Below are positions 38,235 through 57,571 of a stretch of 64,000 nt of DNA, in pieces; within the stretch, counting starts at the first letter, position 1, and the number at the start of each line of letters is the position of its first letter. The position numbers were made by a program, and so were the translations under genes. The notes below the pieces were generated by a model. It ran no database searches. It had not been told where the DNA came from and saw nothing but the letters and a program-made list of their open reading frames with translations. Location of the stretch: assembly GCA_020279385.1 (NCBI GenBank), contig GCA_020279385.1_4762.1; one strand, 5' to 3'. The DNA is from a phage.

Positions 38235-39260
38235 CTAACTTTTTGCGTTATTTACTTCGGCTAAAAGTTCATCAGAAATACGCTTGACCGCCGCAAGTTC
38301 TTCCGGTTCTAGGTTTTGTTCTTCCAGATATTCATAGACCATCTGAATAGTGCTTTTAACTTCAATAACACCTGTTTCCTGTGATGCGCTACTCTCCAGT
38401 TTATGGACCACTTTTAGCTTGTGTACAACGGCCTCTAACGCGCTTTCTAACTTAGTTAATCCATTATCAGCGACCGTTGCGATAAGACGCACACTAAGCC
38501 CTTTAAAGCGTTCTACATCGATTTTATCATCTGACGGGTAAGTGATACGCACATGATAAGTTTTGTCATTCTGAATAAACTCTTTTTTGTGTGTATCGGT
38601 ATCGAATACCCAAAACCCACGCGGATCGTTTTCGTCACCCGCCGTTAGTGTGTATGGTGCACCAATATACGTTACGTTACCGCCATCACTGATAGTATGA
38701 AAGTGACCCGAAAACACTTCACGGTATTTCTTGAGGAAGTCCGCGCTATAACCTTCGGATTTTAGCCCTTTATAGAAATAGTAACCGGACAATTCCCAAT
38801 GGCCTACACAATATTCGCTGAATGAGTTTTGAATAAACTCTAAAATCTCTGATTTATTGTCATCACAAAACCACGGGAACAGATCAAATGATACACCATC
38901 AAAGGTAACTGTTTCAGGTTTATCAATGACCTTAATGCAATCATACTGGCTTAACACTTCACGCGGTGCGTTAGGCTGGATCTTGTTTCGTTTAAACATA
39001 TCATGATTCCCGACCGTGGTATAACAAGTAATATCAGCCTCTTCCAGTAACGGGATGACCTTAGTACGGTTAAATTTCATGGTTTCATGGGTAATTGCTT
39101 TTCGGCAATCAAACCAATCCCCTGTTTGAATCCATGTCTTAATATTATGCTCTTTGGAGTATTCAACCGCTTTCTTGATGGTATCAAGAATATACTCATG
39201 CACCCACGGATCATCGCCACCGATACCAGTATGCAGATCACCTAAAAGCAAAATTTTCAT
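38235..39260 (-). CDS. 47: Recombination nuclease subunit gp47 (Mre11/SbcD-like)
   Basis: 341 aa; metallophosphatase motifs (LGDLH, GNHD, GHFH) and extensive identity to T4 gp47 (ITHETMKF, PNAPRE, FCVGHWEL, TAGDENDPRGFW). Confidence 0.95.
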   Translation of the reverse strand: MKILLLGDLHTGIGGDDPWVHEYILDTIKKAVEYSKEHNIKTWIQTGDWFDCRKAITHETMKFNRTKVIPLLEEADITCYTTVGNHDMFKRNKIQPNAPREVLSQYDCIKVIDKPETVTFDGVSFDLFPWFCDDNKSEILEFIQNSFSEYCVGHWELSGYYFYKGLKSEGYSADFLKKYREVFSGHFHTISDGGNVTYIGAPYTLTAGDENDPRGFWVFDTDTHKKEFIQNDKTYHVRITYPSDDKIDVERFKGLSVRLIATVADNGLTKLESALEAVVHKLKVVHKLESSASQETGVIEVKSTIQMVYEYLEEQNLEPEELAAVKRISDELLAEVNNAKS

Positions 39261-39351
39261 AGTCTCTTCCTCTCTTCGTTTTCGATGCTCTCACTATATC
39301 ACAGAAAAATAAAAAGGGAAACCCCTTTCAGAGTCTCCCTTATAAAAGCCA

Positions 39352-39639
39352 TTACAGCATACTTAATACCGTTTGCCGTGTACTGACCCACATAGCAGAA
39401 AGCAGTTCTGGCGTGTGTGGCTGTTTGTAGATATCACGTAATTTTCCGATAGCGTAGATATACGCATCACGGTTATCATCGATGATAGCTTGTTCAGCCC
39501 ACCGCTTAAGGCGTGCAATCTCTCGCGAGTTCTTACGCAAGATCTTTTCCGCTTTCTTAGCGGCTTTAGCCTCTAGTTCTGCTTGTACTTTGTCTACTTC
39601 ATTCACTGCAATCTGGTCATGCTGTTCATTGCAAGTCAT
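39352..39639 (-). CDS. Hypothetical protein (95 aa)
   Basis: ORF on early strand. Confidence 0.55.
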   Translation of the reverse strand: MTCNEQHDQIAVNEVDKVQAELEAKAAKKAEKILRKNSREIARLKRWAEQAIIDDNRDAYIYAIGKLRDIYKQPHTPELLSAMWVSTRQTVLSML

Positions 39640-40431: not shown

Positions 40432-41901
40432 CTATTCCCCATTGCCATTATACTTTCTTTGCTTAGTTATCCACACTCTAACCATCTCTACTGATTCACC
40501 GTCAGACGGATCAAGAGTTTTTCCTTTTTTCTTCATGCGGTACTTAAATCCGTTAAATCTTGCATTCTCTTGCTCGTTAAAGTCGAACATCTTTTTAAAT
40601 GATTTTCGCCCTTTACGCTCACCGCATTCTAGCGGAATCATTCGGTCTGTTATTACATTGGCATCAGGTAGAAACGTTTTTAGATAATCTACCAACGCCC
40701 AATCAGGAACATATAGATTAACATTCTCCTTGCTCTCGTTGTCTCTCAGGTTACAACGCAAACATAATTGAAATGCTGGTTCCAGATAATCAGACACATG
40801 ACGCGCTTTCAAAAACTCGTTTGTTGGGAGATCGCAACTATTAGCAAGACCTTTTAAAATATCAATCTCCCATCGTTGAGGGTTAAAGCTGAACATCACA
40901 GCAACATTTTTATGATGAATGTAAGAGTTAAGACCATAAGATCCGTAAGGTATCCGCTCACCAATACCATTTGTGCACGCTTCTCGGTCCCGATTAACGG
41001 TATAAATGAAGTCATCGCCACATTCATTTTTAACCATATCAACAAGACGTTCAAAGGTATTGTTTGTTTCTGACTGGTGACGCGACCAGCGTTCGGAGTC
41101 AGTCATAAGGATGATGTTAACTCTATCTGTATTTTTATACTCTTTGAAATATAGTCTGGATTCTAGCGCACTCGGAACAAAATCGCAATTTGCATAGTAT
41201 CGTAGATACTTCCCGCTATATGTATCAAAGAGATTTGCACATGCTATCGTAACCTTTTTAAAGTCTCCCCACGTACCGTGTTTGTTATCGTTCAAGAAAA
41301 CAATTTTCGACCCATTCTTCCGGTGTCCTTCGTTATGTTTTACCATAACGTTGATTTTCTTCTCTAATAACGCCTCATAAAGCCCTCTAAGAGAAGAATC
41401 GATCATATCAGTACCATCCTTTGCACTTTCTATCTTTTCTTTGATAGCGGCCTTCTCAGAGTCTTTTAGAACTAAGTTCTGTAGGCATTCCGATTCGTCG
41501 GCGATTGGTTCGCAATGCTTCGTGATAAGTTCAAGATTAGACTTAAACGGATACTCATTAAATTCAACCAGTTGAGGAACTTCATCAATGTAAAGAGCAT
41601 AATCACCAAACATTTTTGAACGTTCCATATTAGATAACGCTGTATGTGTAATGAATATCACATCAGCACCGTCTTTAACTGATTGCATTATCGACGCTTG
41701 CACTGTCTTAAGGCTTCTTAGTCTGGTGCTATCAATCAAGACAGCACGACCGCCCATTCTTTTAAACTTATTGTAAGATTGTTCACTTAAAACACGAGAT
41801 GGCGAAGCAATAACCGCTTTTTCTTTTGTCTCTAGGACGTGGGAAAGTATAGCATCAGTTTTCCCCGCCGCTGGCAATGCGATTAATGTTTCAATCTTCA
41901 T
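40432..41901 (-). CDS. P-loop NTPase of unknown function (489 aa)
   Basis: N-terminal Walker A (ALPAAGKTDA), Walker B-like (ALYIDEVPQ); no confident family match by eye. Confidence 0.65.
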   Translation of the reverse strand: MKIETLIALPAAGKTDAILSHVLETKEKAVIASPSRVLSEQSYNKFKRMGGRAVLIDSTRLRSLKTVQASIMQSVKDGADVIFITHTALSNMERSKMFGDYALYIDEVPQLVEFNEYPFKSNLELITKHCEPIADESECLQNLVLKDSEKAAIKEKIESAKDGTDMIDSSLRGLYEALLEKKINVMVKHNEGHRKNGSKIVFLNDNKHGTWGDFKKVTIACANLFDTYSGKYLRYYANCDFVPSALESRLYFKEYKNTDRVNIILMTDSERWSRHQSETNNTFERLVDMVKNECGDDFIYTVNRDREACTNGIGERIPYGSYGLNSYIHHKNVAVMFSFNPQRWEIDILKGLANSCDLPTNEFLKARHVSDYLEPAFQLCLRCNLRDNESKENVNLYVPDWALVDYLKTFLPDANVITDRMIPLECGERKGRKSFKKMFDFNEQENARFNGFKYRMKKKGKTLDPSDGESVEMVRVWITKQRKYNGNGE

Positions 41902-42188
41902 TAGAAACCCTTACGTCGTGCTTTCTGGCATTTCTTGATCATTTTATCAGAAATTTCGCGCTTAGGTGCAATCTCTTTCACACCGAAAGCACTAATGCCA
42001 AATTCAGAGAGAATATATTCAACTAACAATTCACGCACACGCGCTTTACCGATATTCACGCCGTTATTTTTCAGATATGTCTGGCCTTCGACTTGCATCA
42101 GATCTAAATCTGCGTCGGTAATATTGATTTCTTCCATGCGCCCAAATCGAGAATAAACCATGTGTGCGATTGCATTGTGTACTAACAT
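41901..42188 (-). CDS. Hypothetical protein (95 aa), coupled to the P-loop NTPase gene
   Basis: SD GAGGAA before ATG at 42188; stop overlaps the NTPase start (ATGA). Confidence 0.5.
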   Translation of the reverse strand: MLVHNAIAHMVYSRFGRMEEINITDADLDLMQVEGQTYLKNNGVNIGKARVRELLVEYILSEFGISAFGVKEIAPKREISDKMIKKCQKARRKGF

Positions 42189-42209
42189 AATATATTCCTC
42201 ACTCAAGAA

Positions 42210-42368
42210 TTACTTAATGATACTTACTTTACCAGATCCATGACAATGAGCGCAACACCCATCACCACGCAATCCTGTTCCGTTACAGTGTTTACACTTC
42301 TTCAACGGTAAAGCCATTATAGCAAATAAAGCAATAATGAATACCGAAACTAAATTCTCAATAATCAT
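42210..42368 (-). CDS. 52-aa membrane microprotein with DnaJ-like Cys-rich zinc-finger motif (not in ORF track)
   Basis: rc reads MIIENLVSVFIIALFAIMALPLKKCKHCNGTGLRGDGCCAHCHGSGKVSIIK; TM helix then CxxCxGxG...CxxCxGxG. Confidence 0.5.
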   Translation of the reverse strand: MIIENLVSVFIIALFAIMALPLKKCKHCNGTGLRGDGCCAHCHGSGKVSIIK

Positions 42369-42627
42369 AAATCGCCCTCAGTTCTTTATAGCCTCCAATG
42401 TGCTCGTTGTCAATGAATATCTGGGGGTATACAAACCGGAGGCTCTTTGAGTTTAGCCTCCCCGCCAGTTCTTCAATCATATCACGGTCGGGAATAATGT
42501 CAACCCCGACCTGCTTGAATACTGGTTTAAGTGTATACGGAATACCCAGATCATCCAGTAGCTTCATTGCACTAATACAACCATAACAATGATAAGCCTC
42601 TTTCGGTATACCGTATATCTCGATCAT
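42358..42627 (-). CDS. nrdH: Glutaredoxin-like protein (NrdH-like)
   Basis: 89 aa; CxxC redox motif (HCYGCISA); thioredoxin-fold size; near nrdG/nrdD. Confidence 0.65.
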   Translation of the reverse strand: MIEIYGIPKEAYHCYGCISAMKLLDDLGIPYTLKPVFKQVGVDIIPDRDMIEELAGRLNSKSLRFVYPQIFIDNEHIGGYKELRAIYDY

Positions 42628-43130
42628 TTCTCAGCCTTTAATCTTTCTAGTTCTTCTTCCAGTTCCTTGATCCGTTGGTCACGTTCAAAGTCACGCTGTA
42701 ACTTAGTGGCAAATACTCGCTTAAACTGATTGTAATCATCGATTTTAAACACTTCTTCTTCGCCATAGCGACGCACAGAAACTTCGTAGTTATTGAAGAA
42801 TTGTTGCATCATTGCATCAGTAGTCAGTTCTGACGACACCACTTTAAAATAACGTTCTTCTGATTGCAAAAACCAGTTGTGCGCGTATTCCCGTACATCA
42901 TCAACATTGCGGCAGGGGTATACCGTGCCATCAATTTCAATCACAGAAACATAATCGATATCTGGTTCATGGCGATCAAACGCAATAACTTTAAATGGAC
43001 GGTCTCCGATAAACTCTGCTATTGCATCATTTGCAACGCTAGAGTTTGCAAAATCTTCTCTCGTTTTATAATCTTTCCACTGATAGGTCATACCAACAAC
43101 AAACATATTACCAACCTCGCTCTTCACCAA
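42624..43130 (-). CDS. Paralog family A member 1 (168 aa)
   Basis: Shares PFKV...IDG..Y core and C-terminal coiled coil with neighbours. Confidence 0.6.
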   Translation of the reverse strand: MVKSEVGNMFVVGMTYQWKDYKTREDFANSSVANDAIAEFIGDRPFKVIAFDRHEPDIDYVSVIEIDGTVYPCRNVDDVREYAHNWFLQSEERYFKVVSSELTTDAMMQQFFNNYEVSVRRYGEEEVFKIDDYNQFKRVFATKLQRDFERDQRIKELEEELERLKAEK

Positions 43131-43656
43131 TCAAAAATTCAACTTCACGACGTTTAATATCTTCTTGAAGGTCTTTAATCTTCTGGCGATCTTGCATGAT
43201 TTCGTCCATCTTGTCAAGTGCTGCAATAAAATCATCGAAACGTTCAAAGGTTTTACCTTCATTTGCTTCGCCAAATTTAACCATTGTCAGACCATAACGA
43301 CTACTAAACAGACGTTTCAACTGTCCAACGATCTTAGAATCATCGTTCACCTTTTCTTCTGGTTCTTTCACTGTTTCAACTTCACGAAAGAATTTTCTAT
43401 CGAATGGACTAAAGAAATATGTTGCAGTCCAAATGTCTTTTCCTGTAGCAGTTTTCGCCGTATGATAAACACCGTCTAGCTCTATTGCATCAATCCATCC
43501 GTTACCCTCGATCTCGATGATGGTAAATGGCTTGTCACCAATAGCTGCACTAATATCGCTGTTAAGTGGAGAAAGAACACCTTCTCCGTTAGTAATAAAC
43601 TCAGTTTTAGCGTTTTCATCTTTCCAAGTGTAAGTTTTACCAATTTCCCATTTCAT
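43108..43656 (-). CDS. Paralog family A member 2 (182 aa)
   Basis: N-terminus MKWEIGKTYTWKD; PFTIIEIEG...IELDGVY core. Confidence 0.6.
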   Translation of the reverse strand: MKWEIGKTYTWKDENAKTEFITNGEGVLSPLNSDISAAIGDKPFTIIEIEGNGWIDAIELDGVYHTAKTATGKDIWTATYFFSPFDRKFFREVETVKEPEEKVNDDSKIVGQLKRLFSSRYGLTMVKFGEANEGKTFERFDDFIAALDKMDEIMQDRQKIKDLQEDIKRREVEFLIGEERGW

Positions 43657-43668
43657 AATATATTCCCC

Positions 43669-44148
43669 TTAACCGATTTTATCAAGTTCGTTTAATGCTT
43701 TCTCTGCTTCCTGTATAGCTTGCACCCTTTCCGGCATTTTGTCAAGAAAATCTTTCAACTCTTCAAAACTGGAGATATGACGCAAGGCGTTAGCACCGAT
43801 AGCCGCATGTGATTTGCATTCAAAGCGGATTTTATAATTATCCATCGCCAACTTGAGAAGATCAATTAATTTAGATTCTTCTGGAATAATAATTTCTTCA
43901 AATCTGCTACGGTCATGATCCAGAAACCAACAAGATAGACCTACATCGGTTGAACTCATATAAGTTCCATCATGAAGATAAACAGACCGCACGTATCCTT
44001 TTTTCGCATCAACCGACGCAACTTTAAACGGTAATCTCAGATATTTCAAATAATCAACATCATACCATTTAAAAAATTGGTTTGCATCTTTTACATCTTT
44101 CCACGCATAGGTCTTACCAGCTTCCCATTTCATAATATCATCTCTCAT
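43669..44148 (-). CDS. Paralog family A member 3 (159 aa)
   Basis: MKWEAGKTYAWKD motif (after short N-extension); PFKVASVD core. Confidence 0.6.
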   Translation of the reverse strand: MRDDIMKWEAGKTYAWKDVKDANQFFKWYDVDYLKYLRLPFKVASVDAKKGYVRSVYLHDGTYMSSTDVGLSCWFLDHDRSRFEEIIIPEESKLIDLLKLAMDNYKIRFECKSHAAIGANALRHISSFEELKDFLDKMPERVQAIQEAEKALNELDKIG

Positions 44149-44674
44149 TTTTGATACGTGATTCTAATTGGATCATACGGTCGCGCGTTTGTTTGTATTC
44201 TCGGATAGCACCGATCCGGCTAGGCATACCATCCAGTACGCTCTTAATACCTTCTAGGGTAGTAATTTTGGCAATGCTATTATGTAACCCCATCTTATCG
44301 ATCAACTGAATGTCGTAGGCTTCCATAAGCAGACCCAGTCGTTCTAAAGTTAGGTCTTCTTCTTTTTCTTCCGAATCTGGAATCTTAGGTTCAATAGTAA
44401 CTTCGGTAAAGAAACGACGCTCACCTGCCCAAAACCACACGCCGGAACAGCCAATAGGGGATTCTTTTAACGTCATAGAGTCGAAATTACTACCAATAAT
44501 AGTAATTTCTCTAACATCACCATCATCGTCAAGGTCTTCTACCCTAAACGGGCGACCAGCCAACAAGTCAACAATACATCTGTTAATAGACGACGAAAAT
44601 TTAGTCAGTTCGGCTTTCGACGCTTCGCATTCAATCTTGTAAGTTTTACCAACTTCCCATTCCATAATAATCAC
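44138..44674 (-). CDS. Paralog family A member 4 (178 aa)
   Basis: MEWEVGKTYKIE motif; PFRVEDLD core. Confidence 0.6.
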   Translation of the reverse strand: MIIMEWEVGKTYKIECEASKAELTKFSSSINRCIVDLLAGRPFRVEDLDDDGDVREITIIGSNFDSMTLKESPIGCSGVWFWAGERRFFTEVTIEPKIPDSEEKEEDLTLERLGLLMEAYDIQLIDKMGLHNSIAKITTLEGIKSVLDGMPSRIGAIREYKQTRDRMIQLESRIKNER

Positions 44675-57113: not shown

Positions 57114-57571
57114 TTTGTGATCTCCTTATACTCAACACACCATAAGCGGGTAGCCCATGATAAACGCTCATAACGCTGGCAGAAATTGGACCATAGATAT
57201 TGTGTACCGTCTTGCATGGTTGAAATATGCGTTTTCTCACCTAATTTCACGAAAGAAGTATTCGATTTTGTGATCTCGACCGGAGTATATCCGAAAGCGG
57301 GTTCCAACTCAACATCTGAACTAAATGCCAATTTAACAGAATTTGTTTTCCTGACCGCTGTCCGGTTTCCTTCTGGGTATAGCACAGCAGGTTTAGCGCC
57401 TAAGCGGATAAACTCAGTGTTTTTAATAAACAGAATATCATGATAACCGTCATATTCCGACACTTCCATAGTAACAGGAAAATCGATATGTGCTAAACCT
57501 GGTAGATCTCGCATATCATGAAATGTAGCCATCAACTTTTTCATCTTGTATTCCTCACTCTTCTGTTTCAT
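57110..57571 (-). CDS. Hypothetical protein (153 aa)
   Basis: ORF on early strand. Confidence 0.55.
   Translation of the reverse strand: MKQKSEEYKMKKLMATFHDMRDLPGLAHIDFPVTMEVSEYDGYHDILFIKNTEFIRLGAKPAVLYPEGNRTAVRKTNSVKLAFSSDVELEPAFGYTPVEITKSNTSFVKLGEKTHISTMQDGTQYLWSNFCQRYERLSWATRLWCVEYKEITK

Follow-up and report, generated by a model that had tools for sequence, protein, structure and literature searches.

The 52-residue microprotein encoded at positions 42210–42368 of the window, a 64,000-nucleotide stretch of phage DNA, most likely tethers a single zinc knuckle of the DnaJ/anti-TRAP type to the inner face of the host's inner membrane. The window is from a Krischvirus (RB49/Phi1/JSE group), and the gene is one of the RB49-like coliphages. 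With a probability of about 0.5, the product is an early, bitopic inner-membrane microprotein whose knuckle holds or blocks a partner at the cytoplasmic face and which acts as an accessory factor in host takeover or counter-defence. On present evidence, it is a well-defined accessory gene for an uncharacterised variant of a known zinc module, and no discovery in itself. Annotation routinely overlooks small phage proteins or leaves them "hypothetical", yet several of them, T4 gp55.2 for example, have proved to be precise inhibitors of host machines. The family described here joins a membrane anchor to a zinc knuckle of the DnaJ/anti-TRAP kind in its smallest known version. Two unrelated groups of virulent enterobacterial myoviruses share it, and apart from eight invariant residues its sequence changes unusually fast. 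A partner, if found, could reveal a new phage route to the manipulation of a membrane-associated host process, and the module could then offer a 30-residue zinc scaffold for protein targeting.

Identification and annotation of the gene

The peptide MIIENLVSVFIIALFAIMALPLKKCKHCNGTGLRGDGCCAHCHGSGKVSIIK is the product of 42210–42368 on the minus strand, with an ATG at 42368–42366, 52 codons, and a TAA at 42212–42210. A plus-strand reading of the same interval was rejected, as that strand contains stops throughout. A Shine-Dalgarno sequence, GAGGG (42375–42379, minus strand), lies 6 nt 5′ of the ATG within the last codons of the upstream nrdH-like gene. At the equivalent place, GAGG(G/A) is found in four related loci (L006, L008, L012, and L013) and AGGAG in L011. 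The 52-residue ORF of the preliminary description therefore exists, on the minus strand and with its own ribosome-binding site, and its start does overlap the upstream stop: the overlap with the nrdH-like gene, whose TGA is at 42360–42358, is 11 nt. When the stop-free segments in the six frames of the whole 64-kb window were scanned for C..C.G.G, the pattern turned up only twice, both times within this ORF. Over 100 shuffles, a window contained it 0.16 times on average and never twice in one segment. The microprotein ORF is a genuine phage gene.

The gene had been described as unannotated, which holds only for an ORF track with a 60-residue cutoff. In GenBank it is public as the hypothetical protein RB49p046 (NP_891617.1, UniProt Q7Y3T0), which some records label a "putative membrane protein". 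RB49 and the majority of the 59 Krischvirus records carry the annotation, and a few lack it. It is also a member of phrog_3931: the PHROG 3931 HMM matches it with E = 4.3e-10, residues 7–48 aligning with profile positions 15–56 of 59. This PHROG carries the annotation "unknown function".

Family distribution and sequence divergence

Word-indexed protein searches returned close relatives only, whereas an exhaustive profile search (133 hits) also recovered divergent alleles. Many of these are either DnaJ-like proteins with multiple repeats or small proteins whose N-terminus resembles a signal peptide, and neither kind was counted in the family. Among sequenced phages, the family is confined to Krischvirus and Ounavirinae (FelixO1, SUSP1, and Erwinia phages); a search of IMG/VR with gp55.2 as the anchor yielded four loci only. 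Weaker tblastn matches in Pbunavirus and cyanophage S-RIM2 were rejected, since the motif there lies within large proteins of different architecture. A T4 counterpart was likewise rejected: genes 55.3–55.6 lie between T4 nrdH and 55.2, and none of their products is hydrophobic or Cys-rich.

The Ounavirinae proteins, represented by FelixO1 ORF131 (Felix01p243) and SUSP1 gp080, are true homologues with equal length, the same architecture, and the same invariant residues, and they share 33–42% identity with the window protein. Both have been assigned to phrog_3931 (PMC11879866, supplementary file 8). As in the window, their start overlaps an upstream ORF. They differ in having a slightly longer N-tail (MQxYW) and in location, as the gene lies just upstream of rIIA(-rIIB) in every Ounavirinae locus examined and not beside nrdH.

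The preliminary description had looked to conservation of the ORF and its Cys pattern in related genomes, and both are retained, at the nrdH/55.2 junction of relatives whose flanking genes are 56–79% identical and in the unrelated Ounavirinae. Overall, the ORF is held at this junction in six allele types, with flanking genes 56–100% identical. Eight residues (Cys25, Cys28, Gly30, Gly32, Cys39, Cys42, Gly44, and Gly46) do not vary among 15 sequences whose identity is otherwise 27–87%. Compared with L006, the zinc half has one non-synonymous and four synonymous codon changes, and the transmembrane (TM) half has six and seven, respectively, plus a three-codon insertion. Frameshifted versions are rare in Felixounavirus: the intact FelixO1-type cluster has 262 member sequences, while each of the four frameshifted forms has one.

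The microprotein gene is the fastest-evolving of its neighborhood in both lineages. In one Krischvirus contig, its product is only 45–48% identical, although the flanking genes are 94–100% identical. Such divergence could mark a fast-diversifying determinant of host specificity or counter-defence, in which the tethered knuckle captures or blocks a membrane-associated host factor; the target may be, for example, the FtsH protease (compare plant FIP and FtsH5, below) or a membrane-bound abortive-infection effector. If so, the replacement of whole alleles in genomes 94–100% identical, together with the fastest evolution in two lineages, would be the trace of an arms race, and the family would define a previously unrecognised class of membrane-anchored zinc-knuckle inhibitors encoded by phages. 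In this specific form, the proposal is a tentative one that we hold with low confidence. A PADLOC search with the window and FelixO1 proteins returned 0 families.

Membrane helix and predicted topology

A single hydrophobic helix is predicted at residues 2–22 (42303–42365, minus strand). AlphaFold places the helix at residues 2–19, and the hydropathy core spans residues 6–22, with Glu4 and Ser8 near the N-terminal end. Kyte-Doolittle hydropathy averages 2.4–2.8 over the first ~20 residues, well beyond the usual TM threshold, and the 17-residue hydrophobic core reaches 2.2–3.2 in 13 sequences. The N-tail is free of Lys and Arg in all 13, and the C-terminal part contains three to six of them. 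One acidic residue is present in the N-tail in 10 of the 13; the conserved Glu lies barely inside the computed TM core in the remaining three. This charge distribution suggests an N-out/C-in topology with a cytoplasmic knuckle, an argument that is weaker for several Ounavirinae versions, in which the C-terminal part is net-negative. The helix, the N-tail devoid of Lys and Arg, and the basic C-side seen in the sequence are those of bitopic N-out/C-in proteins of the Pf3-coat-like kind.

Glu4 is nearly invariant and Ser8 is present in ~13 of 15 sequences, while the remainder of the helix varies freely. Given this conserved face, the TM segment may do more than anchor the protein. Conceivably, the helix itself is the effector, pairing through Glu4/Ser8 with a membrane protein in an envelope role (superinfection exclusion, lysis timing, or an rII-type function), with the knuckle as a folding or regulatory cap. 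The position directly upstream of rIIA–rIIB in Ounavirinae would suit such a role, and the rII genes are likewise dispensable in the absence of Rex (PMC11879866). Yet the best-conserved part of the protein is the knuckle and not the helix, and the Krischvirus gene does not adjoin rII. In addition, T4 possesses rII, imm, sp, and rI without a homologue of the microprotein, profile searches matched no known holin, antiholin, or Imm/Sp protein, and the PADLOC search was empty. An effector helix is unlikely.

Genomic neighborhood and expression

The upstream nrdH-like glutaredoxin gene (42358–42627, minus strand) encodes 89 residues with a CYGC motif. The direct downstream neighbor is a homologue of gene 55.2 (41901–42188, minus strand; 95 residues, DUF7570), which has a separate GAGG and starts with an ATG 19 nt past the microprotein stop. 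Next comes the gene for a P-loop (ALPAAGKT) DEAD-like protein of 489 residues (40432–41901, minus strand). The gene had been placed between the NrdH-like gene and a P-loop NTPase operon; the former side is correct, but on the latter the gp55.2 homologue intervenes. The T4 protein gp55.2 inhibits E. coli topoisomerase I (PMC4396842).

A sigma-70-type promoter-like site (TTGACA-16-TATGAT with a TG extension; 42476–42503, minus strand) lies inside nrdH, ~107 nt upstream of the ATG, and relatives L011 and L012 have a comparable site in the corresponding position. The window site is a candidate early promoter, and its retention inside nrdH suggests that the microprotein gene is expressed early. No late promoter TATAAATA is found near the gene. 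The lack of TATAAATA nearby, the promoter-like site at a conserved position, the 55.2 neighbor, the "Not Fit" score of the SUSP1 homologue (see below), and the fast evolution together point to an early, accessory character.

The overlap with the end of the glutaredoxin gene, which recurs in every Krischvirus-like locus, raises the question of a redox role. The Cys-rich tail, including its Cys-Cys dyad, might be a thiol-disulfide partner of the NrdH-like glutaredoxin, in electron shuttling or in disulfide reduction or isomerisation at the membrane. Oxidoreductase activity has been reported for the zinc domain of DnaJ, and PDI activity is a property of LQY1 and CYO1, two plant proteins of the TM + DnaJ-like kind. 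Furthermore, a fifth Cys (Cys38, forming a GCC dyad with the adjoining zinc ligand Cys39) is conserved in 12 of 15 sequences, and there is a weak Pfam match (E = 0.0036) to the C-terminal domain of GRXCR1/2, a Cys-rich tail fused to a glutaredoxin domain. That match is below threshold and limited to one of 15 members. In Ounavirinae, moreover, the gene overlaps a 111-residue ORF without CxxC, beside rIIA and ~10 kb from the glutaredoxin gene, and T4 has nrdH without a microprotein homologue. We regard a redox partnership as quite unlikely. A "Rosetta stone" reading of the GRXCR1/2_C fusion was rejected for the single matching member and the loss of adjacency in Ounavirinae.

The predicted zinc knuckle and its structural relatives

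Residues 25–46 (42231–42296, minus strand) read CKHCNGTG-x6-CAHCHGSG, the two motifs occupying 42273–42296 and 42231–42254, and are predicted to form one Zn(Cys)4 site, with Cys38 preceding motif 2. The spacer is six residues long in the window protein and most homologues. A family profile built from 15 members was compared with PDB sequences, and the best matches were the DnaJ cysteine-rich domain (1exk, E = 2.8e-10), DNAJA3 (2ctt, 9.3e-8), and anti-TRAP (3lcz, 1.4e-5). The window protein alone matched 1exk_A with E = 9.1e-6. The profile aligns to 1exk_A in two stretches: either pair of adjacent DnaJ motifs fits, and the six-residue spacer is common to both. With PF00684, the window protein scored 14.6 bits (E = 0.041), short of the gathering threshold of 32.7, and 13 of 15 family members reached E ≤ 0.1 (best, 3.3e-5). 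The NCBIfam RtpA model (NF058604) gave 12.8 bits against a cut-off of 65. Gad1 (Pfam) matched the window protein with E = 0.16 and one of the 15 members with 0.0064, below threshold; together with the Lar and lambda-Q-like matches, it was rejected as weak and restricted to the generic CxxC scaffold.

The AlphaFold model of the microprotein has a pLDDT of 78.8. Among PDB entries, Foldseek ranked anti-TRAP first, with RMSD values of 0.7–0.9 Å over 28–30 residues, followed by DnaJA2, DNAJA3, DnaJ, and BSD2, at E-values of 0.26–2 that are non-significant for a domain so small. The hydropathy, the profile match to 1exk, and the superposition on anti-TRAP bear out a TM helix followed by two DnaJ-type CxxCxGxG motifs, as first described. 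Every family member has two repeats only, compared with four in the DnaJ cysteine-rich domain. The microprotein is half a DnaJ zinc domain, and with two motifs it presumably has one zinc site, as in anti-TRAP.

A known stand-alone counterpart is anti-TRAP (RtpA) of Bacillus (PDB 2bx9, 3lcz, and 3ld0; PF15777), which has ~53 residues, two CxxCxGxG motifs, a six-residue spacer, and one zinc. The microprotein is alike, with zinc predicted, and among known structures anti-TRAP best matches its modeled knuckle. However, anti-TRAP is soluble, and its C-terminal helix drives trimer and dodecamer formation, whereas the helix of the microprotein is N-terminal and hydrophobic and only six residues follow the knuckle, with no C-terminal helix in the AlphaFold model. 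The GCC dyad, conserved in the microprotein family, is absent from anti-TRAP. TRAP is not known from E. coli or other enterobacterial hosts. The type I DnaJ/Hsp40 cysteine-rich domain (1exk; PF00684) shares the CxxCxGxG motifs and spacer, but its four motifs form two zinc centers (motifs 1 + 4 and 2 + 3) inside a J-domain co-chaperone, in contrast to the two motifs, presumably single center, and membrane anchor of the microprotein. Neither DnaJ nor anti-TRAP has an equivalent of Cys38, the fifth Cys within the dyad, and its conservation is not accounted for by a simple Zn(Cys)4 site.

In overall architecture, the microprotein matches plant FIP (At5g02160), in which a membrane helix precedes a C4 finger of two CXXCXGXG motifs on the stromal (cytoplasm-equivalent) side, without a J domain (PMC5915565). 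FIP belongs to a thylakoid group of TM + DnaJ-like proteins that also includes LQY1, CYO1/SCO2, HCF222, and the soluble BSD2. These plant proteins are eukaryotic, longer, and equipped with a transit peptide, and they serve only as a functional analogy.

The strongest profile match being the E. coli DnaJ cysteine-rich domain, with both halves aligning, the microprotein could be imagined as a mimic of DnaJ zinc center II that recruits or sequesters DnaK at the membrane without a J domain. Zinc center II of DnaJ contacts DnaK, and some records name a homologue "DnaJ chaperone". Those names are automatic, though, and the likeness lies almost wholly in the generic CxxCxGxG scaffold that is common to anti-TRAP, BSD2, and lambda Q. 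The 52 residues gave no J-domain match in Pfam and contain no HPD motif, and the G/F region and substrate-binding domain of DnaJ are also missing. Hijacking of DnaK is improbable.

Proposed function

In the favored membrane-tethered knuckle, residues 2–22 would insert as one TM helix, with an acidic N-tail of 3–5 residues on the periplasmic side and a cytoplasmic C-terminus, in the manner of the Pf3 coat. Residues 25–46 would fold around one Zn2+ through Cys25, Cys28, Cys39, and Cys42 into the knuckle seen in anti-TRAP and in half of the DnaJ cysteine-rich domain. Because there is no J domain, canonical Hsp70 co-chaperone action would be excluded. The knuckle would instead hold or block a putative partner protein where the inner membrane faces the cytoplasm.

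Binding of a partner is proposed by analogy, because the knuckle is a protein-binding surface in the characterised cases, to our knowledge in every one of them. DnaJ binds substrate and DnaK, and BSD2 binds RbcL. Anti-TRAP binds TRAP and acts purely by binding another protein (PMC2896485), and FIP binds the membrane protease FtsH5 (PMC5915565).

The microprotein would then be a conditionally useful factor of host takeover or counter-defence, dispensable on laboratory hosts. Consistent with this, the CRISPRi-ART screen (PMC11879866, supplementary files 8 and 16) scored the SUSP1 homologue AVU07_agp080 (phrog_3931) as "Not Fit"; under laboratory conditions, this related phage can do without its copy. 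The other gene-essentiality papers examined make no mention of Krischvirus or Ounavirinae phages. The best reading is a non-essential, membrane-tethered, putative protein-binding module.

That the ORF is a chance frame at the nrdH/55.2 junction without a functional product, as its shortness, its absence from a few GenBank annotations, the "Not Fit" score, and the few frameshifted Felixounavirus versions might suggest, is extremely unlikely and already contradicted by the conservation pattern: frame, Shine-Dalgarno sequence, and the eight motif residues persist across sequences that share only 27–50% identity and come from two phage lineages that are unrelated, the shuffles give no reason to expect the motif pair by chance, and the intact FelixO1-type cluster stands against single frameshifted forms.

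Separately from the coding status of the gene, the SUSP1 knock-down and the rare frameshifts also fit a product of little or no function.

Gene Structure and Annotation

The microprotein gene lies on the minus strand at 42210–42368 of the window, as a 52-codon ORF that begins with ATG (42368–42366) and ends with TAA. The preliminary description had given this interval and exactly this peptide, to which the strand can now be added; the plus strand of the interval contains stops throughout. An SD sequence, GAGGG (42379–42375, minus strand), precedes the ATG with a 6-nt spacer. As had been noted, the start overlaps the upstream stop: the ATG lies within the end of the nrdH-like gene (42358..42627, minus strand; 89 aa; TGA stop), and the overlap is 11 nt. 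The reported hydrophobic start and two CxxCxGxG motifs were confirmed by translation, hydropathy, and motif counting. Residues 1–~20 have a mean Kyte-Doolittle hydropathy of 2.4–2.8, and when stop-free segments were scanned across the window in all six frames, the motif C..C.G.G turned up only twice, both times inside this ORF. Shuffling the window 100 times gave a mean of 0.16 occurrences, and in no case did a segment contain two.

The surrounding 1 kb is 95–99.5% identical to 59 Krischvirus records (RB49, Phi1, JSE, GEC-3S, and others). In RB49, the gene order is nrdH (RB49p047), the microprotein counterpart RB49p046 (NP_891617.1, labelled "hypothetical protein"), a gp55.2 homologue (RB49p045), a 489-aa P-loop/DEAD-like protein (40432..41901, minus strand, in the window), and gene 55. 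Phage W115 carries the labels "putative membrane protein" for the microprotein and "putative helicase" for the 489-aa protein, and the UniProt/BFVD entry for the microprotein is Q7Y3T0. The description of the ORF as unannotated thus holds for the 60-aa ORF track on which it was based, but not for GenBank or UniProt, although the ORF is omitted in MT478991, MN655998, MF327006, and OR525698, where only the glutaredoxin is listed under the match. Likewise, the NrdH-like gene was correctly placed upstream, whereas the direct downstream neighbor is gp55.2 and not the P-loop gene. In the mechanical ORF list, gp55.2 starts with TTG at 42206 (minus strand); the SD-preceded ATG at 42188 is likely the true start (95 aa, as in the RB49 annotation). 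This ATG is separated from the microprotein stop by 19 nt, and gp55.2 has its own GAGG.

Family and Distribution

The microprotein was assigned to phrog_3931 (function unknown) in PHROGs with E = 4.3e-10. As a single sequence, it produced two sub-threshold Pfam matches, DnaJ_CXXCXGXG (14.6 bits; cut-off, 32.7) and GRXCR1-2_C (E = 0.0036). In a tblastn search of 50,697 phage records, full-length matches were confined to Krischvirus (59 records, 96–100% identity) and Ounavirinae (Felixounavirus, Suspvirus, Mooglevirus, and Kolesnikvirus; 38–48% identity), the latter numbering ~280 records as estimated from 341 records at ≥80% coverage minus the 59 of Krischvirus. ORF131 of FelixO1 reads MQAYWIEILLSLGSVAVFVYLLCKYYAEHKKCDYCNGEGYTRAGCCPMCGGSGKMFNK, and the version of Erwinia phage Rouille carries the automatic name "DnaJ chaperone". 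The Ounavirinae carry the gene immediately ahead of rIIA-rIIB, with a start that overlaps the preceding ORF of 111–113 aa in FelixO1-type loci and follows it closely in Rouille.

When 1.84 billion representatives were searched exhaustively with a profile, 133 matches at E ≤ 1e-3 were obtained, of which about a dozen are proteins of 50–60 residues with the same architecture; the rest, multi-repeat DnaJ-like proteins and small proteins with a signal-peptide-like N-terminus, were left out of the family. The contigs of four divergent homologues have identical synteny (glutaredoxin, microprotein, DUF7570 (gp55.2), and DEAD-like protein) and keep the SD and overlapping start, with flanking proteins just 56–79% identical to those of the window. 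The T4 interval between nrdH and 55.2 holds no microprotein counterpart. In T4 (L014:4306-4829), 55.8 flanks nrdH on the opposite side, and in phage SUSP1 (L017:47422-47857), a 66-aa ORF overlaps the end of the glutaredoxin gene. Both are small proteins that are either hydrophobic or labelled a predicted membrane protein, and neither has a zinc motif; the pairing of a small membrane protein with a neighboring phage glutaredoxin may recur.

Predicted Zinc Knuckle and Conserved Residues

A profile built from 15 members was searched against all PDB sequences and matched the cysteine-rich domain of E. coli DnaJ (1exk, E = 2.8e-10), both halves of which align, followed by human DNAJA3 (2ctt, E = 9.3e-8), anti-TRAP (3lcz, E = 1.4e-5; 2bx9, E = 3.8e-3), and lambda Q (E = 2.5e-3); the single sequence matched 1exk with E = 9.1e-6. 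AlphaFold2 with the family alignment predicted a helix (residues 2–19) followed by short hairpins, with a mean pLDDT of 78.8. Foldseek against the PDB ranked anti-TRAP first (3ld0, 3lcz, and 2bx9; RMSD 0.7–0.9 Å over 28–30 residues, probability 0.85–1.0) and then DnaJA2, DNAJA3, DnaJ, BSD2, and lambda Q, with E-values of 0.26 and above that are not significant, the domain being very small. Outside the family, the BFVD matches included many small, mostly uncharacterized phage proteins, a few of them labelled "DnaJ-like" or "Anti-TRAP domain".

The six-residue spacer between the two motifs is identical to that of anti-TRAP and is also found between motifs 3 and 4 of DnaJ. In DnaJ (1exk), four motifs form two zinc centers by pairing 1 with 4 and 2 with 3; the two-motif microprotein should therefore have one center and be anti-TRAP-like. 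Anti-TRAP has 53 residues, and its zinc, bound by two CXXCXGXG motifs, is essential for its assembly and its function of binding TRAP (PMC2896485). Plant FIP, which binds the membrane protease FtsH5, shares the architecture of the microprotein: a membrane helix, then two CXXCXGXG repeats, and no J domain (PMC5915565). As a name for the motif, the earlier term "DnaJ-like zinc finger" is correct. The microprotein itself does not belong to the DnaJ domain family, having two repeats against four, a score below the Pfam threshold, and no J domain; nor is it anti-TRAP proper, as it scores 12.8 against 65 and lacks the C-terminal helix.

In the family alignment (15 members, 27–87% identical to the window protein; SUSP1 not included), eight columns, apart from that of the initiator Met, show no variation: C25, C28, G30, G32, C39, C42, G44, and G46. 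The ORF and its Cys pattern, whose loss in relatives had been named as grounds for rejecting the gene, are clearly kept. A fifth Cys at codon 38 (42253–42255), just before the predicted third zinc ligand, forms a "GCC" dyad in 12 of the 15 members, whereas this position is Pro in DnaJ and anti-TRAP. The first motif of the SUSP1 homologue (L018:7142-7321) is CDECEGSD, the last-position Gly, which never varies among the 15 aligned members, being replaced by Asp.

Predicted Membrane Topology and Candidate Promoter

The N-tail ahead of the hydrophobic core contains no Lys or Arg in 13 of 13 sequences, and 3–6 Lys/Arg follow the core. One acidic residue is present in 10 of the 13 N-tails; the remaining three sequences have the conserved Glu slightly inside the computed core. 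By the positive-inside rule, this distribution points to an N-out/C-in topology, for which the Pf3 coat protein is a precedent. The C-terminal part is net-negative in several Ounavirinae versions, for which the topology is less firmly indicated. In an N-out/C-in orientation, the Cys-rich knuckle would face the cytoplasm, a reducing compartment in which it could plausibly coordinate zinc.

The ORF has no T4-type late promoter (TATAAATA) within a distance of ~18 kb. Within nrdH, ~107 nt before the ATG, lies a strong promoter-like site of the sigma-70 type (TTGACA-16-TATGAT plus a TG extension; 42476–42503, minus strand). RB49 and the relative L008 have the identical site, and the relative L006 differs from it by one spacer change; at the equivalent position, L011 has a perfect TTGACA-17-TATAAT and L012 has TTGACT-17-TACAAT, although nrdH is only 56–66% identical there. 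This site and its counterparts suggest that the microprotein, besides being reached by upstream read-through, can be the first gene of an early unit comprising the microprotein, 55.2, and the 489-aa protein.

Proposed Function

The literature search turned up no paper addressing what this phage microprotein family does. The downstream neighbor's T4 homologue, gp55.2, inhibits E. coli topoisomerase I and raises phage fitness (PMC4396842), so the region holds host-modulating accessory genes. The SUSP1 homologue, AVU07_agp080 (57142–57321; phrog_3931), has been equated with Felix01p243 and was scored "Not Fit" by transcriptome-wide CRISPRi-ART, i.e., its knock-down caused no loss of SUSP1 fitness on the laboratory host; the adjoining rIIA was "Semi-Fit" (PMC11879866, supplementary files 8 and 16).

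The best-supported reading is that the gene is genuine, early, and non-essential and encodes a bitopic inner-membrane microprotein whose single zinc knuckle, of the anti-TRAP/DnaJ type, would face the cytoplasm. To our knowledge, the knuckle is a protein-binding surface in every characterized protein that has it; hence, the microprotein is proposed to hold or block a partner protein at the membrane, as an accessory host-takeover or counter-defence factor. A rival is a redox role together with the NrdH-like glutaredoxin, its upstream neighbor here; in the Ounavirinae, the upstream ORF has no CxxC motif. Alternatively, the helix itself might be the effector in an envelope process through a conserved Glu4/Ser8 face, E4 being nearly invariant among the 15 aligned sequences and Ser8 present in ~13 of them. 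DnaK hijacking is a further rival for a protein with a DnaJ-type motif and no J domain. A spurious ORF is effectively excluded, since the conservation pattern contradicts it. For the membrane-anchored knuckle, what is already known is the catalogued gene and a zinc module of known kind; what is new is the functionally undescribed combination of an N-terminal membrane anchor and a single-center DnaJ/anti-TRAP knuckle in a phage protein of ~55 residues, a combination common to Krischvirus and Ounavirinae and locally hypervariable.

Sequence Evolution and Neighboring Genes

Codon comparison with L006, a metagenomic relative, shows one non-synonymous and four synonymous differences in the zinc half (residues 25–52) and six and seven, respectively, in the helix half, which also has an in-frame three-codon insertion. 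These counts indicate that the knuckle is under purifying selection and the hydrophobic helix only loosely constrained. In metagenomic contig L008, the most striking case, identity to the window proteins is 94% for nrdH and 99–100% for gp55.2, the 489-aa protein, gp55, and gp47, yet the microprotein (L008:5748-5924; 58 aa) is only 45–48% identical. The DNA divergence begins after the SD just ahead of the ATG and ends just ahead of the 55.2 SD, a pattern suggestive of a replaced allele, or of very rapid evolution, in this gene alone. Among the Ounavirinae, identity is 31–49% for the microprotein against 25–89% for the NAMPT-like gene, ORF130, and rIIA; the microprotein is the least identical of the four in three of four comparisons and is, here too, the fastest-evolving gene locally. 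Four Felixounavirus-type versions of 63 aa (P0006, P0008, P0009, and P0010) are frameshifted at differing points into one common alternative frame and lack the knuckle. All four are single-member versions, whereas the intact cluster counts 262 sequences; they could be sequencing errors or occasional gene loss.

The 489-aa protein is a second mosaic spot, only 70% identical to its counterpart at L006:756-2225; nrdH, 55.2, and gp55 around it are 97–98% identical between L006 and the window, and the 489-aa protein is ~100% identical in L008. Between gene 47 and a-gt.4, the window phage has a gap of only 91 nt (39260–39352); in RB49, this position is occupied by RB49p040, a 555-nt gene for an HNH homing endonuclease. 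Between nrdG and nrdH (42624–44674, minus strand) lie four tandem paralogues of 168, 182, 159, and 178 aa, which share ~25% mutual identity, common invariant residues, and the start "WE.GKTY.WKD". For two of them, identity to the L008 version is only ~60%, and one of these two L008 versions has 277 aa against 182 aa in the window.
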